Part shown: piece after piece, positions 10,263 to 22,371 of the stretch
Layout of the letters: each line of letters starts with the position of its first letter
How positions within the stretch are numbered: the stretch's first letter is position 1
Origin: Escherichia coli
Lineage (GTDB): Bacteria; Pseudomonadota; Gammaproteobacteria; Enterobacterales; Enterobacteriaceae
Length of the DNA: 64,000 nt
Reading direction: 5' to 3' (one strand)
Assembly (NCBI RefSeq): GCF_003334355.1
Contig: NZ_QOWP01000001.1
Position numbers and translations under genes: made by a program
Notes under the pieces: model-generated
The model's database searches: none
What the model was told of the DNA's origin: nothing
The model's input: the letters and a program-made list of their open reading frames with translations, nothing else

Positions 10263-11405
10263 TTAAATCTGCTTTTCATACAATCGGTAACGCTTGTACG
10301 GCTCTGCCCCAATGCGTTCCAGCATGTTATTCATGCCTGTATTGGTTTCGAGGATCCATGACATCTCCAGCGCATCGATCTTCCGGCGGGCAAACGGATC
10401 GCGTAAGGCTTCAATCAATAACAGCGCAATCACCGGGCCGATGCGGCTGAACTGATACTCGTCGCGCACGCCCATCAGCGGTACTCGCGCAGTTCGCACA
10501 CCGCTGACTTTCAAACGCCACAGCAATTTTGCCCAGCCGAAGGGAAAGAGCGATCCGTTCAGATCGGCAATCGCCTCGTTGATGTTCGGCAAGCCGACAA
10601 TAAACGCGCAGGGTGCAGAATCAATCTCAGCGATATAGATCATATCGTCCGGCACCAGATATTTAAGTTGATCGCCCATGGTCGCGAATTCATGTTCGGT
10701 AAACGGCACAAATCCCCAGTTGTGCTGCCAGCCAGAGTTGAAAATCTCACGCAGGATCTGCATCTCTTCGGCAAACCGCTGACGATTGATGCAGCGAATG
10801 GTCACCTTTTTGCGCACCTGATCCATCAGTTTTTTTAGCGCCGGAGAGAAAGTGAGATCGGTTCGCTGCATCCACCACGCCAGTAAATCAATGCCTTTGT
10901 GATAACCCAGTTGTTCAATATGCGCGGCATACCACGGTTTGCCGTGTGGCATCATCGCACAGGGTGGTGTGTCAAAACCTTCAATCAGTAATCCGCTTTC
11001 CTGATTGATATTCAGGCTGAAAGGCCCGCTGATCTTACTTGCACCTTGTGACTTCAACCACGCTTCCGCTACGCCAAACAACGCGGCAAAAACCTGCGGA
11101 TCATCAATGGCGTCAATCATGCCGAAATGACCGGTATCTTTGCCGTAACGCTCGCGGTGCAAGGTATCTATTTGCGCGGTAATACGCCCAACTATCTGCC
11201 CCGCTTTTTTTGCCACCCACGCCTGCCAGATGATATGGTCCGTCCCCGGATTTTTCGCAGACAAATGCTCGTTGCGTTCAATGAATAAAGGGGGTATCCA
11301 GTTTGGATCGTCGGGATAAAGTGATGACGGAAAAGCGATAAATGCCTTAAGGTCATTTTTATTAATTACTTTTTCAATTTTAATCATCAGCAGATCGCAT
11401 TCCAT
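10263..11405 (-). CDS. yghO: YghO, GNAT-fold (acyl-CoA N-acyltransferase superfamily) protein; candidate N-acyltransferase of the adjacent lipid island
   Basis: Long minus-strand ORF; the track start at 11483 is a TTG. First ATG at 11403-11405 gives MECDLLMIKIEKV...; a second candidate ATG lies at 11387. Start uncertain. Family assignment is from memory of YghO annotation, not a motif I can prove here. Confidence 0.65.
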   Translation of the reverse strand: MECDLLMIKIEKVINKNDLKAFIAFPSSLYPDDPNWIPPLFIERNEHLSAKNPGTDHIIWQAWVAKKAGQIVGRITAQIDTLHRERYGKDTGHFGMIDAIDDPQVFAALFGVAEAWLKSQGASKISGPFSLNINQESGLLIEGFDTPPCAMMPHGKPWYAAHIEQLGYHKGIDLLAWWMQRTDLTFSPALKKLMDQVRKKVTIRCINRQRFAEEMQILREIFNSGWQHNWGFVPFTEHEFATMGDQLKYLVPDDMIYIAEIDSAPCAFIVGLPNINEAIADLNGSLFPFGWAKLLWRLKVSGVRTARVPLMGVRDEYQFSRIGPVIALLLIEALRDPFARRKIDALEMSWILETNTGMNNMLERIGAEPYKRYRLYEKQI

Positions 11406-11780
11406 AGTTCTGTTCTGTGGGTAACAAATAATTAACGGTGACAAACAGGTTGCAACAGCAACGAACGGCACCTTAATAATCAACCCAATGAATACAAACG
11501 ACGAATAAATAGTATTTATTAATGATTACGATAAGGTCAGAGACTACACAGAAGCGCCACAATGCCTTTTGTCGATTTAAGGCGACCGGACAAGGCTTCT
11601 TCTTAATACATTCATAAATTAAATATCATTCACAATAAAAACAAAAAACTTAAACTCATTATTTAAATCAATGTTCATTTTCACACCGATGAAAATACTA
11701 TCTCATTTATCTTTTATGCCTATATAATCCACCGCATTATTGTCATTTTATTTTTGATATCCAATTTTTTCGTGGTGTAT
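11406..11780. promoter_or_regulatory. AT-rich divergent promoter region between yghO and the acyl-AMP ligase operon
   Basis: Visibly AT-rich spacer (e.g. ttcataaattaaatatcattcacaataaaaacaaaaaacttaaactcattatttaaatcaatg) between divergent starts; typical of H-NS-silenced accessory promoters. Confidence 0.4.
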
Positions 11781-13502
11781 ATGTCTAATAAAATCTTTAC
11801 GCATTCCCTACCTATGCGCTATGCCGATTTTCCAACGCTGGTTGATGCTTTGGACTACGCCGCTCTGAGTAGCGCCGGAATGAATTTTTATGACAGACGT
11901 TGCCAACTTGAAGATCAACTGGAATATCAGACGTTAAAAACGCGTGCCGAAGCTGGTGCGAAGCGGTTGTTATCGCTGAACCTGAAAAAAGGCGAACGCG
12001 TGGCGCTGATTGCCGAAACGAGTAGCGGGTTCGTAGAGGCTTTTTTTGCCTGCCAGTATGCCGGCTTAGTCGCCGTCCCGTTGGCGATTCCAATGGGCGT
12101 TGGTCAGCGGGATTCCTGGAGCGCCAAATTGCAGGGTTTACTGGCAAGTTGCCAGCCCGCAGCCATTATCACTGGTGATGAGTGGTTGCCACTGGTCAAT
12201 GCCGCGACGCATGACAACCCCGAATTACATGTTTTAAGCCACGCCTGGTTTAAGGCATTACCGGAAGCCGATGTTGCGCTCCAGCGTCCAGTTCCGAACG
12301 ATATCGCCGACCTCCAGTACACCTCCGGCAGCACCCGTTTTCCCCGTGGCGTCATTATCACCCATCGCGAAGTGATGGCTAATCTACGTGCTATAAGCCA
12401 CGACGGCATTAAATTACGCCCTGGCGACCGCTGCGTCTCCTGGCTGCCTTTCTACCATGATATGGGACTGGTCGGCTTTCTCCTGACCCCCGTCGCCACG
12501 CAGCTTTCAGTAGATTATTTGCGCACTCAGGATTTTGCCATACGTCCTCTGCAATGGCTTAAATTGATCAGTAAAAATCGCGGCACCGTTTCCGTTGCGC
12601 CGCCGTTTGGCTATGAATTGTGCCAGCGCCGCGTGAATGAAAAAGATCTCGCTGAACTGGATCTTTCCTGCTGGCGCGTCGCTGGTATTGGTGCAGAACC
12701 CATCTCCGCAGAACAACTCCATCAATTCGCTGAATGTTTCCGTCAGGTTAACTTTGACAATAAAACTTTCATGCCGTGCTACGGACTGGCAGAAAATGCG
12801 CTGGCTGTCAGCTTCTCTGATGAAGCCTCCGGGGTTGTGGTTAACGAAGTGGATCGCGACATCCTCGAATATCAGGGTAAAGCCGTCGCGCCGGGTGCAG
12901 AGACACGCGCCGTATCGACTTTCGTCAACTGCGGCAAAGCGTTGCCGGAACATGGTATTGAAATCCGCAATGAAGCAGGTATGCCGGTCGCGGAACGTGT
13001 GGTAGGCCATATTTGCATCTCCGGTCCCAGTCTGATGAGCGGTTACTTTGGCGACCAGGCTTCGCAAGACGAGATTGCCGCGACGGGCTGGTTAGACACC
13101 GGCGACCTCGGTTATCTGCTGGACGGTTATCTGTATGTCACCGGACGCATTAAAGATCTGATTATTATTCGTGGCCGTAATATCTGGCCGCAGGATATTG
13201 AATATATAGCGGAACAGGAACCGGAAATTCATTCTGGCGATGCGATTGCTTTTGTTACCGCCCAGGAAAAAATCATTTTGCAGATCCAGTGTCGGATCAG
13301 CGACGAAGAACGTCGCGGGCAGCTTATCCACGCGCTGGCGGCACGGATCCAAAGCGAATTTGGCGTGACCGCGGCTATCGATCTGTTGCCGCCCCACAGT
13401 ATTCCCCGAACGTCCTCCGGCAAGCCTGCCCGTGCGGAAGCGAAAAAACGTTATCAGAAGGCTTATGCTGCCAGTCTTAATGTGCAGGAATCCCTGGCAT
13501 GA
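11781..13502 (+). CDS. Fatty acyl-AMP ligase / acyl-ACP synthetase (AMP-binding adenylate-forming family)
   Basis: Adenylation motifs YTSGSTRFPRGV, YGLAEN, DTGDLGY and GRIKDLIIIRGRNIWPQDIE; C-terminal SGKPARAE. Track start 11754 is TTG; first ATG is 11781 (MSNKIF), start uncertain. Stop overlaps next gene start (ATGA at 13499-13502). Confidence 0.8.
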   Translation: MSNKIFTHSLPMRYADFPTLVDALDYAALSSAGMNFYDRRCQLEDQLEYQTLKTRAEAGAKRLLSLNLKKGERVALIAETSSGFVEAFFACQYAGLVAVPLAIPMGVGQRDSWSAKLQGLLASCQPAAIITGDEWLPLVNAATHDNPELHVLSHAWFKALPEADVALQRPVPNDIADLQYTSGSTRFPRGVIITHREVMANLRAISHDGIKLRPGDRCVSWLPFYHDMGLVGFLLTPVATQLSVDYLRTQDFAIRPLQWLKLISKNRGTVSVAPPFGYELCQRRVNEKDLAELDLSCWRVAGIGAEPISAEQLHQFAECFRQVNFDNKTFMPCYGLAENALAVSFSDEASGVVVNEVDRDILEYQGKAVAPGAETRAVSTFVNCGKALPEHGIEIRNEAGMPVAERVVGHICISGPSLMSGYFGDQASQDEIAATGWLDTGDLGYLLDGYLYVTGRIKDLIIIRGRNIWPQDIEYIAEQEPEIHSGDAIAFVTAQEKIILQIQCRISDEERRGQLIHALAARIQSEFGVTAAIDLLPPHSIPRTSSGKPARAEAKKRYQKAYAASLNVQESLA

Positions 13503-21626: not shown

Positions 21627-21657
21627 TCGTTAAATCATCCCCTATCCATTTTGGTGA

Positions 21658-22371
21658 TCAGGAAAGCGCGGCGTGAATTGCGCGTAGTGACGCTTGCAGA
21701 ATTTCATCGGCTGGTTGCCGACCATCCAGTTCAAGGATCTTTGCGCCATTGAATGTCAATTGCGGCGTAACGGCGATTTTTTCCTGTAACGCTGCCAGTT
21801 GGTGGTCAGGTTTACGCGCAAACGCGGTTTGTTCATCAATGCCAAGACGAATCAACAATACGGGCAAATAAGACGCCATCCATTGGTACAGCTTCAACTC
21901 GCGCTGCCTTAACATTTTTATCCAACCGTTACCGCCCGTGGTTTTTGCCAATTGCGGGCCATCAAAGCGAAACCCCGGCACTTCAACCTGCGGGTAGCGG
22001 TCGGTGATGAGCAGAAAGCCTTGCTGGCTTTTACACAACATTTTGCGAAACTTGTACGCCCGCCAGCAGGAAAGCAGATAGATAACCAGTGCAGTAATAT
22101 TGCCAGGCGGTGTTGAGGGCTTTTCGTGCACATGTGCCGCTTTACTTCGCAGATAACGCCCAAAAGGTGCGCCAATAACAGGGAGCTGTGAAATCCATTC
22201 GCCAATTCGCCCGGACGATTGCCCGAGATAAATGTGTTCTGTTGGCATTCTTGCTGCCAGTTCATTTACCAGGCTTGCCGTGAGGGTCGATTTACCTGAA
22301 CCATCACATCCTACAATGGCAATAACATGCACTGGCGTGGAATTAATTATTGACATATTACGTTGATTCAC
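21658..22371 (-). CDS. yghS: P-loop NTPase, thymidylate-kinase-like fold, paralog of yghR/yghT
   Basis: Walker A IVGCDGSGKSTL, ITDRYPQ, ARKPDH; 237 aa. Confidence 0.85.
   Translation of the reverse strand: MNQRNMSIINSTPVHVIAIVGCDGSGKSTLTASLVNELAARMPTEHIYLGQSSGRIGEWISQLPVIGAPFGRYLRSKAAHVHEKPSTPPGNITALVIYLLSCWRAYKFRKMLCKSQQGFLLITDRYPQVEVPGFRFDGPQLAKTTGGNGWIKMLRQRELKLYQWMASYLPVLLIRLGIDEQTAFARKPDHQLAALQEKIAVTPQLTFNGAKILELDGRQPADEILQASLRAIHAALS

Follow-up and report, generated by a model that had tools for sequence, protein, structure and literature searches.

The yghO-yghT locus of Escherichia coli, a probable sphingolipid synthesis and export block: evidence for its stepwise, IS5-driven loss in K-12

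The map of E. coli K-12 MG1655 shows a copy of IS5 (insH9/IS5LO) between yghO and yghQ, whereas in the 64-kb stretch of E. coli DNA analyzed here (the window) the two genes are separated by coding sequence, which raises the question of which arrangement is ancestral and what the additional genes do. A sequence-only reading of the window, which had described the K-12 map correctly, proposed that K-12 is the deletion derivative. Our analysis leads us to conclude, with high confidence, that positions 10263-23237 of the window correspond to a structurally complete 13-gene locus, yghO to yghT, vertically inherited by the genus Escherichia between glcC and pitB, which serves sphingolipid synthesis and probably export, and whose middle 8.4 kb K-12 has lost stepwise through IS5.

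The genes from yghO through yghT constitute one 13-gene block whose synteny is kept across Enterobacterales; the yghO, yghQ, yghR, yghS and yghT genes of K-12 are therefore leftovers of this block. The 8.0 kb lying between the start of yghO (11405) and the stop of yghQ (19473) are filled with coding sequence of ordinary composition (per-gene GC 0.41-0.55) and coupled junctions, as had been described from the sequence alone. The aasR/cerR and lptF2/lptG2 pairs overlap by 4 nt (13499-13502 and 16976-16979, respectively), and acpR/spt and yghQ/274-aa protein gene have one base in common (14693 and 19473, respectively). The sole outlier in GC content (0.32) is the AT-rich, 408-bp spacer separating the divergent yghO and aasR genes (11406-11813), which is deleted in MG1655 and presumably harbors promoters, promoter-like matches within it being no more frequent than expected by chance. 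A hairpin with a 16-bp stem (15868-15902), found by consensus scan only, lies where spt and lptG2 converge and is a candidate bidirectional terminator.

The left half of the block carries the genes of sphingolipid synthesis. On the minus strand, yghO (10263-11405) encodes a homologue of bacterial ceramide synthase (aca/CerS), an N-acyltransferase with a tandem-GNAT fold. On the plus strand follow aasR (11814-13502), encoding a fatty acyl-AMP ligase acting as acyl-AcpR synthetase (NCBIfam NF006624, 861.7 bits for a cutoff of 600); cerR/epi (13499-14413), encoding an NAD-dependent SDR presumed to be the 3-keto reductase of the ceramide pathway; acpR (14445-14693), encoding a specialised acyl carrier protein that ACP models match below their cutoffs; and spt (14693-15865), encoding a serine palmitoyltransferase (equivalog NF047599, 599.2 bits for a cutoff of 500). 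Profile matches to CerR were to SDR models only and below threshold (HpnA, 94.7 bits); the position of its gene between aasR and acpR is constant in all related loci. Work on the BL21 counterparts [PMC9386255] has shown the acyl-AcpR synthetase function of AasR (ECD_02851) and the 4′-phosphopantetheinylation of AcpR (ECD_02853), the counterpart of CerR being named epi (ECD_02852); acyl-AcpR was the preferred substrate of the BL21 SPT, and co-expression of AasR, AcpR and SPT yielded 3-oxo-sphinganine. By this scheme, AasR would load a fatty acid onto its dedicated carrier AcpR, Spt would condense acyl-AcpR with serine to 3-oxo-sphinganine, and YghO and the SDR CerR would complete dihydroceramide. 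Since BL21 carrying empty vectors or expressing SPT alone produced no 3-oxo-sphinganine [PMC9386255], the chromosomal locus of this strain appears to be silent under laboratory conditions. A sphingolipid is the putative natural product of the locus in wild E. coli.

The right half consists of a seven-gene minus-strand operon in the order yghS-yghR-yghQ-274aa-ytfJ2-lptF2-lptG2, from which yghT diverges. Three P-loop kinase-like paralogues are encoded by yghS (21658-22371), the first gene of the operon, yghR (20868-21626) and yghT (22545-23237, plus strand), which closes the conserved block beyond the 10263-22371 interval originally described and whose product has a dTMP-kinase-like fold. The 449-aa product of yghQ (19473-20822) resembles flippases of the MOP superfamily; its MOP flippase match is weak, and it shares 32% identity with the ORF that lies immediately upstream of aasR in a metagenome-assembled genome of a member of the Caulobacteraceae, which is the position of CC_1166 in Caulobacter. 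Downstream of yghQ lie the gene for the 274-aa protein (18649-19473), conserved within the block at a syntenic position in 25 loci and without match in Pfam, NCBIfam or PDB; ytfJ2 (18077-18640), whose YtfJ-family product (TIGR01626, 211 bits for a cutoff of 151) has an N-terminal signal-like sequence; and the genes of LptF-like (lptF2, 16976-18046; TIGR04407, 317.3 bits for a cutoff of 230) and LptG-like (lptG2, 15900-16979; N-terminal part, 199 bits on TIGR04408) permeases. The seven-gene operon and yghT would most likely modify the lipid and then move it to the outer membrane, with YghR/S/T, YghQ and the second LptF/LptG pair as putative parts of this route. The block includes no gene for an LptB-like ATPase or LptC2, leaving the export model incomplete in this respect, and a role of YghR/S/T in lipid modification is a guess because these proteins have no relationship to CpgB, the ceramide kinase of Caulobacter, which belongs to the diacylglycerol kinase type.

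The locus had been called intact, which holds for its structure only: lptG2 is a pseudogene in this strain owing to an in-frame TAG on the minus strand (16233-16235) in place of the CAG codon for Gln249 found in other strains such as NCTC9040. This nonsense mutation is recent and private (one of 5426 genomes), and is flagged as an internal stop by RefSeq in PSS-12, the genome nearest to the window (99.9% identity over 9000-24000 and 100% over 11366-19753). The earlier statement that the interval from glcC to pitB is devoid of transposase, integrase and IS ends was borne out by the RefSeq annotation of PSS-12, which lists no transposase or integrase there, and by searches of the whole 64-kb window, in which neither BLAST with IS5 nor a search for the IS5-end pattern allowing three mismatches returned a match. 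The immediate flanks, with glcC-glcDEFGBA at one end and pitB-gss-yghU-hyb at the opposite end, are likewise free of mobility genes.

Alignment of MG1655 to the window revealed collinear flanks (6220-11365, 99.86% identity; 19754-28414, 99.3%) surrounding a single 1195-bp IS5 in place of 8.39 kb of the window (about 11366-19754), the ligase, reductase, ACP and Spt genes being absent from MG1655. K-12 yghO has lost its promoter and codons 1-13 at one end of the element, while yghQ keeps its first 356 codons and has lost the last 93 at the other. The left junction is a TTAA (11362-11365) located 40 nt inside yghO, and the right junction is a CTAA at 19755-19758, where the window reads CTGA. Since the 4-bp flanks of the MG1655 element differ (TTAA versus CTAA), there is no target-site duplication and the element did not arrive by simple insertion; together with the truncation of both abutting genes, this marks K-12 as the derived state. 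The CTAA allele occurs with an uninterrupted yghQ in nine genomes, and the IS5-CTAA junction in 346.

Consistent with a deletion, some K-12 stocks (WG1, NCM3722 and LS5218) keep part of the segment; a stepwise loss refines the deletion proposed from the sequence alone. NCM3722 has 7 kb more than MG1655 and one more IS5 [PMC3045373], LS5218 has a 3.5-kb insert [PMC5699524], and the early stock WG1 carries an additional, IS5-flanked block absent from EMG2, MG1655 and W3110 [Browning et al., PMC9997739]. In our alignments 7.0 kb of the segment persist in WG1 and are 99.7% identical to the window. Its first IS5 copy lies inside acpR at TTAA 14655-14658, with a perfect TTAA/TTAA duplication, whereas its second copy shares the CTAA right junction of MG1655 and has, on its left, the TTAA at 18394-18397, at which the YtfJ-family gene is truncated. 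These junctions support a loss of the segment in several steps, whose order and mechanism may be reconstructed as follows. IS5 would have inserted at the CTAA allele inside yghQ, and its left end would then have generated an adjacent 1.36-kb deletion ending at the TTAA of the ytfJ-like gene; in a separate event, acpR would have received a second IS5, giving the state of WG1 and NCM3722. On the EMG2/MG1655/W3110 branch, a further leftward deletion of 7.0 kb, ending at the TTAA in yghO, would have removed the second IS5, either as one adjacent deletion or as IS5 x IS5 recombination followed by deletion. The remnants of yghO and yghQ would thus come to abut one IS5 with a fixed right junction, leaving yghR, yghS and yghT orphaned.

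At least 80% of window 11366-19753 is present in 4064 of 5426 complete E. coli genomes (75%), while ~21% have none of it. Three cryptic-clade Escherichia genomes carry the locus between glcC and pitB, in the order glcDC-yghO...yghT-pitB, with nucleotide identities to the window (84-97%) of the same order of magnitude as those of the flanking genes (92-97%). The shared location, the comparable divergence and the prevalence among complete genomes support the window arrangement as the ancestral state, with K-12 as its deletion derivative. Beyond the genus, synteny of all 13 genes is kept in Citrobacter, Pseudocitrobacter, Hafnia, Pluralibacter, Sodalis, Mangrovibacter, Pantoea and Rosenbergiella, and Serratia has the same genes with the seven-gene export operon inverted as one unit; a pattern-based scan of representatives of E. 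albertii, E. fergusonii and Salmonella returned no match.

The 8.4 kb might conversely be an island gained horizontally between yghO and yghQ by non-K-12 strains, K-12 preserving the original empty site into which IS5 later inserted. While the best Spt model being one named for Betaproteobacteria, the patchiness of the block across Enterobacterales and Pseudomonas, the empty scan of the three relatives and the E. coli genomes devoid of the segment would fit such a gain, we regard it as highly improbable: K-12 yghO and yghQ are cut exactly at the IS5 ends and the window has the codons they lack, which together with the 7.0 kb kept by WG1 refutes the reading of K-12 as an empty site. Moreover, in other genera yghO, yghQ, yghR, yghS and yghT belong to one block with the supposed island genes, the segment borders show no mobility genes, tRNA or repeats, and the cryptic clades have the same arrangement. 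An ancient gain of the entire yghO-yghT block by an ancestor of Escherichia does not conflict with vertical inheritance followed by deletion in K-12. Whether that deletion was a single homologous recombination between two directly repeated, flanking IS5 copies is doubtful. The two same-orientation copies in WG1, described as flanking the block, and the LS5218 remnant (ligase, dehydrogenase and ACP fragment), which is the expected product of recombination between copies 1 and 2, speak for it, but the left copy of WG1 sits in acpR and the left junction of MG1655 in yghO, such that the MG1655 structure would also require either one more deletion or an IS5 in yghO, a third and unobserved copy.

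Finally, the locus could be a decaying remnant throughout E. coli, its intact copies nowhere functional and its loss from K-12 without phenotype. Inactivations are indeed easily found and independent: besides lptG2 here, there is a yghO stop in O145:H28 (RM13516), IS1 events together with an aasR stop in Eco_23-3511, and, in O157:H7, loss of the whole locus; the BL21 chromosomal genes, too, gave no detectable product. On the other hand, the segment is widely retained, the annotations of NCTC9040 and FDAARGOS_1297 include all 13 genes and flag none as a pseudogene, the BL21 proteins show activity upon expression, the window's nonsense allele is private, and the 85-99% identity of the proteins to those of the cryptic clades, together with 13-gene synteny in several genera, points to long-term purifying selection. 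We thus find a general remnant unlikely; the frequent decay suggests weak or conditional selection.

The gene order and names of 10263-15865 are those of ECD_02850-02854 of E. coli BL21(DE3) (yghO/aca, aasR, epi/cerR, acpR and spt; Padilla-Gomez et al. 2022, PMC9386255), the correspondence being by order and name alone. That study treated the genes as an E. coli B feature; its account extends neither to the eight genes that follow, from lptG2 through yghT, nor to how frequent the locus is across E. coli, nor to the K-12 deletion junctions. The K-12 loss, too, is already known piecemeal (2011, 2017 and 2023), so that the little study the system was thought to have received is true only in part. 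The three reports [PMC3045373, PMC5699524, PMC9997739] noted the 7 kb (NCM3722, WG1) or 3.5 kb (LS5218) missing beside yghO in MG1655 and the IS5 copies involved, and discussed the genes as possibly biotin-related, as 'fatty acid metabolism' or as 'LPS export/oleD'; none names a sphingolipid cluster, maps the junctions or uses a wild-type locus to work out the succession of steps. The lesion resembles rfb-50 of K-12 (wbbL::IS5) in the element, the YTAR-type targets and the loss of a cell-envelope function, but rfb-50 is a simple insertion, unlike the two successive one-sided deletions, 8.4 kb in total, proposed for yghO-yghQ. The Caulobacter crescentus cluster CC_1168-CC_1152 [PMC11324152; Stankeviciute et al. 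2022] likewise combines aasR-cerR-acpR-spt as well as cerS with a second LptF/LptG pair and the gene of a putative flippase adjoining aasR, and the related Caulobacteraceae metagenome-assembled genome shows 32-53% identity for the yghQ-like, aasR, cerR, acpR, spt and yghO-like genes. In contrast, the E. coli block has no homologue of cpgA, cpgB, cpgC, LptC2, CC_1152, CC_1153 or CC_1158, and instead encodes YghR/S/T, the YtfJ-family protein and the 274-aa protein. Given these differences in gene content, the final lipid of E. coli is probably different from that of Caulobacter.

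Alignment of the window with region 3125000-3140000 of E. coli K-12 MG1655 (NC_000913.3) yielded two blocks, at window positions 6220-11365 (99.86% identity) and 19754-28414 (99.3%), separated in MG1655 by a 1195-bp IS5 annotated as IS5LO/insH9; the segment absent from K-12 corresponds to window 11366-19754 and spans 8.39 kb. The MG1655 IS5 (locus positions 5147-6341) is complete, with ends GGAAGGTGCGAACAAG and CTTATTCGCACCTTCC, and shares 100% identity with both IS5 copies of the early K-12 stock WG1. Its left junction falls 40 nt inside yghO, the K-12 gene having lost codons 1-13, including the conserved MIKIEKV start, together with the promoter region; the yghO annotation in MG1655 continues into IS5. 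The right junction falls inside yghQ, of which 356 of 449 codons are kept. The element is flanked by TTAA to its left and CTAA to its right (4 bp each), without target-site duplication, and these mismatched flanks indicate that the MG1655 IS5 is not a simple insertion. The sequence-only reading placed an IS5 between yghO and yghQ in K-12 and took K-12 for a deletion derivative of the state seen in the window. The alignment places insH9 at that position, and the collinear flanks, the truncation of both genes at IS5 and the lack of a duplication bear out the deletion; thus, the finding was real and its interpretation right. The opposite polarity, with an insertion in the window and an empty site in K-12, is ruled out by the gene truncations and by WG1.

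Among K-12 stocks, NCM3722 has 7 kb more than MG1655 along with a further IS5 copy (Lyons et al., PMC3045373), LS5218 carries a 3.5-kb insert encoding a ligase, a dehydrogenase and an ACP (Rand et al. 2017, PMC5699524), and WG1 an extra IS5-flanked block that is missing in EMG2, MG1655 and W3110 (Browning et al. 2023, PMC9997739). Mapped on the window, WG1 has intact copies of yghO, spt and the second LptG/LptF-like pair, lptG2 and lptF2. Its first IS5 copy lies in acpR within a perfect TTAA|IS5|TTAA duplication (window 14655-14658), and its second is bordered by TTAA on the left (window 18394-18397) and CTAA on the right (window 19755-19758), with 1.36 kb already missing (the gene for a 274-aa protein, plus the parts of the ytfJ-like gene and of yghQ that encode the N-terminus and the C-terminus, respectively). 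The right CTAA junction is common to WG1 copy 2 and the MG1655 IS5, the left junction of MG1655 lying 7.0 kb beyond that of WG1, at a different TTAA, in yghO. The left junctions in WG1 and MG1655, three in all, thus fall at TTAA, and the right one at CTAA. The consensus target of IS5 is YTAR, and targets of this type were found at all IS5 junctions of both stocks; at the right site, within yghQ, the window itself reads CTGA, as does the comparison strain NCTC9040. A preference of IS5 for CTAA/CTAG has been reported (PMC11677980).

The right-hand CTAA might have been a leftover of a target duplication acquired elsewhere. A search with a 55-mer, in which every 28-mer seed covers the polymorphic base, found the CTAA allele with an uninterrupted yghQ in nine genomes and the IS5|CTAA junction in 346. 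Given the nine uninterrupted genomes, a leftover duplication was rejected; the CTAA target is a natural G/A polymorphism. The simplest history of the K-12 loss, as read from the junctions, would begin with IS5 insertion at CTAA within yghQ, after which the same IS5 end would have given rise to two successive leftward adjacent deletions; the acpR insertion would be an independent event, erased later by the second deletion. The junctions follow the pattern expected of a deletion derivative, namely unmatched flanks with one original junction (CTAA) kept, a simple insertion producing a 4-bp duplication as at WG1 copy 1. From the junction structure of these end states, we infer that the adjacent deletions may have proceeded through intramolecular transposition. 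Recombination between IS5 copies 1 and 2 is compatible with the structure of LS5218, and deriving MG1655 by the same exchange would require an extra step.

The window is chromosomal, and the closest complete genome, PSS-12, is 99.9% identical over window 9000-24000 and 100% over 11366-19753. Its RefSeq annotation places glcD and glcC in the left flank, followed by yghO on the minus strand; genes for a fatty acyl-AMP ligase, an NAD-dependent epimerase/dehydratase-family protein, an acyl carrier protein and spt, in that order, on the plus strand; lptG, lptF, genes for a YtfJ-family protein, a hypothetical protein and a 'lipopolysaccharide biosynthesis protein' (yghQ), then yghR and yghS, on the minus strand; and yghT on the plus strand, ahead of pitB. 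The PSS-12 annotation has neither a transposase nor an integrase from glcD to pitB, BLAST found no IS5 match in the whole 64-kb window, and a pattern search for IS5 ends returned none. Coupled gene junctions were seen at 13499-13502, 14693, 16976-16979 and 19473, and per-gene GC content ranged from 0.41 to 0.55, the only exception being the 408-bp divergent yghO-aasR intergenic region (0.32). The absence of mobile elements between glcC and pitB and the coupling of genes between yghO and yghQ, both noted from the sequence at the outset, were thereby confirmed, and the description of the locus as intact held for its structure but not for lptG2, which is inactivated by a nonsense codon. This TAG (16233-16235, minus strand) replaces CAG (Gln249) of NCTC9040 and is the lesion behind the 'internal stop' flag in the RefSeq record of PSS-12. 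Searched with a seed-spanning 55-mer, the TAG allele occurred in one of 5426 complete E. coli genomes (PSS-12), and is a private, recent inactivation in the window lineage; because of it, the window strain is a non-ideal reference. Promoter-like sites were no commoner than in shuffled sequence (15 versus 15.8), and no promoter is therefore claimed. Two GC-rich hairpins, one with a 16-bp stem (15868-15902) between the convergent spt and lptG2 and one with a 12-bp stem (23248-23276) between yghT and pitB, are candidates for bidirectional terminators, which would then delimit operons. At the left edge, the minus strand of window 1-~330 encodes what reads as the SslE/YghJ lipoprotein N-terminus; at the equivalent position PSS-12 has an annotated IS1 beside glcA, so that the window differs from PSS-12 at that end.

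At least 80% of window 11366-19753 was present in 4064 of 5426 complete E. coli genomes (75%), and some part of it in 4268, at segment identities of 95.5%-100%; carriers include ST131 O25b:H4 and O145:H28. Relatives were sought by a pattern-based scan for Spt in one genome per species, followed by tblastn with all 16 of the region's proteins. The order glcD-glcC-yghO...yghT-pitB recurred in three cryptic-clade genomes (E. whittamii, Escherichia sp. E1V33 and the divergent 'E. coli' SCPM-O-B-8794), and a fourth, MOD1-EC7003, matched it up to the 274-aa gene, where its contig ends. Nucleotide identity to these genomes was 84-97% for the block and 92-97% for the flanking genes, a similar divergence that fits vertical co-inheritance. 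Representatives of E. albertii, E. fergusonii and Salmonella were not returned by the pattern-based scan, which is weak evidence that the block is absent there. Elsewhere in E. coli, the locus has been lost independently. In O157:H7 Rafaela_II, an island rich in IS elements (IS66, IS3 and IS630), which also carries a fragment of a TcdA/TcdB-type glycosyltransferase (Efa1/LifA-like), has taken the place of everything left of mid-pitB (window equivalent up to ~23550), leaving pitB truncated; in a canine isolate, two copies of IS1 are accompanied by a stop codon in aasR and a deletion from spt to pitB; and in O145:H28 RM13516, yghO is interrupted by a stop codon.

The genes from yghO to spt were compared with the Rhodobacteria-type ceramide synthesis cluster (aasR, cerR, acpR, spt, cerS). 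The spt product scored 599.2 bits against NF047599, the NCBIfam equivalog for serine palmitoyltransferase (cutoff 500), and the nearby ligase AasR, of the fatty acyl-AMP ligase type, 861.7 bits against NF006624 (cutoff 600), with 42% identity to the ORF at the aasR position of a Caulobacteraceae MAG. Directly upstream of spt, acpR is an 82-aa ACP-like ORF (14445-14693) whose stop overlaps the spt start and which matched ACP models at E 6e-9, under their cutoffs. The putative SDR reductase CerR (epi), encoded at a conserved position between aasR and acpR, had sub-threshold SDR/epimerase matches only (HpnA at 94.7 bits, cutoff 367) and is 34% identical to its Caulobacteraceae counterpart. The GNAT-type bacterial ceramide synthase (CerS/aca) is represented in the cluster by a homologue, YghO. 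In BL21(DE3), the genes that correspond by order and name, ECD_02850 (yghO, aca), 02851 (aasR), 02852 (epi), 02853 (acpR) and 02854 (spt), have been studied by Padilla-Gomez et al. (2022, PMC9386255): AcpR was phosphopantetheinylated, acyl-AcpR was the preferred SPT substrate, and heterologous overexpression of AasR, AcpR and SPT together yielded 3-oxo-sphinganine, none being detectable from the chromosomal BL21 genes. Literature searches linking yghQ, or IS5/BL21, with serine palmitoyltransferase found no match.

The block is bigger than these five published genes. The whole set of 13, yghO to yghT, is found clustered in Citrobacter, Pseudocitrobacter, Hafnia, Pluralibacter, Sodalis, Mangrovibacter, Pantoea, Rosenbergiella and Serratia, and in Serratia the eight genes from lptG2 to yghT, the putative export half, are inverted as a single unit. 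Serratia sp. M24T3 has two spt loci, one with the full 13-gene block and one matching only acpR and spt (69% and 79%). LptF2 scored 317 bits against TIGR04407 (cutoff 230) and the N-terminal 248 aa of LptG2, a pseudogene in the window, 199 bits against TIGR04408, the two genes overlapping by 4 nt; the YtfJ-family protein scored 211 bits against TIGR01626 (cutoff 151). None of the 13 genes scored as an ABC ATPase (LptB) or LptC, YghS matching ABC_tran at the P-loop level only (E 0.013), and LptF2/LptG2 would need to borrow the housekeeping LptB. YghQ, a predicted MOP-type flippase, shares 32% identity with the ORF that immediately precedes aasR in the Caulobacteraceae MAG (the CC_1166 position). 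The 274-aa protein (18649-19473, minus strand), whose start shares base 19473 with the yghQ stop, recurs as a conserved member of the block at 25 loci and had no Pfam, NCBIfam or PDB sequence match. YghR, YghS and YghT (20868-23237) are mutually paralogous P-loop proteins (34-44% identity) of dTMP-kinase-like fold, and their genes accompany the sphingolipid block in many Enterobacterales and some Pseudomonas.

Both the MG1655 deletion (three times) and the characterisation of the biosynthetic half are already published; new here are the junction-level stepwise reconstruction in K-12, the 75% prevalence, the placement of yghO, yghQ, yghR, yghS and yghT in one 13-gene block, and the lptG2 nonsense codon. 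In MG1655, IS5 truncation has reduced a ceramide-synthase homologue to the remnant yghO (listed as 'putative DNA-binding transcriptional regulator') and a flippase to the remnant yghQ ('putative transport protein'), and yghR, yghS and yghT are left there as orphans of the block; knockout and resequencing phenotypes of these five genes in K-12 are to be read accordingly. Like yghQ, yhiS is in K-12 a gene remnant adjoining an IS5 copy. Dense 'SNV' clusters reported in both genes in a chlorhexidine-adaptation study (PMC8170033) may be read-mapping artefacts or IS5 events, not point mutations. Building on the observed synteny and enzyme identities, and with native expression, kinase role and export route as predictions, we tentatively propose, as a possible rather than a probable reading, that in most wild E. 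coli and many other Enterobacterales the 13 genes form one functional module for producing a sphingolipid, modifying it by YghR/S/T as a new dTMP-kinase-like family of lipid kinases, and sending it to the outer membrane by a dedicated flippase and the second LptF/LptG. Were this true, E. coli would possess a class of envelope lipid that has escaped notice through the loss of the genes from the reference strain, and yghO, yghQ, yghR, yghS and yghT would gain a context. About three-quarters of complete E. coli genomes encode gene products capable of starting sphingolipid synthesis and, to our knowledge, standard lipid work has all been done in K-12; the right background for the question of outer-membrane sphingolipids is a wild strain with 13 intact genes, or a repaired K-12.

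In Caulobacter, the cluster encodes LptF2, LptG2 and LptC2 as well as a flippase, a set for which transport of sphingolipids to the outer membrane has been proposed (PMC11324152), and its ceramide kinase CpgB is of the DAG-kinase type with a GGDG motif (PMC10331486). YghR/S/T were considered as homologues of this kinase and rejected, CpgB as described there differing in type from the dTMP-kinase-like YghT; no CpgB-type match was found among the genes of the block. The E. coli block resembles the Caulobacter cluster in having LptF2, LptG2 and a flippase, but lacks homologues of cpgABC as well as an LptB and LptC of its own. Given the lack of cpgABC homologues, the head-group chemistry probably differs from that of Caulobacter. 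By analogy with the Caulobacter system, the E. coli block is proposed to export its lipid to the outer membrane.
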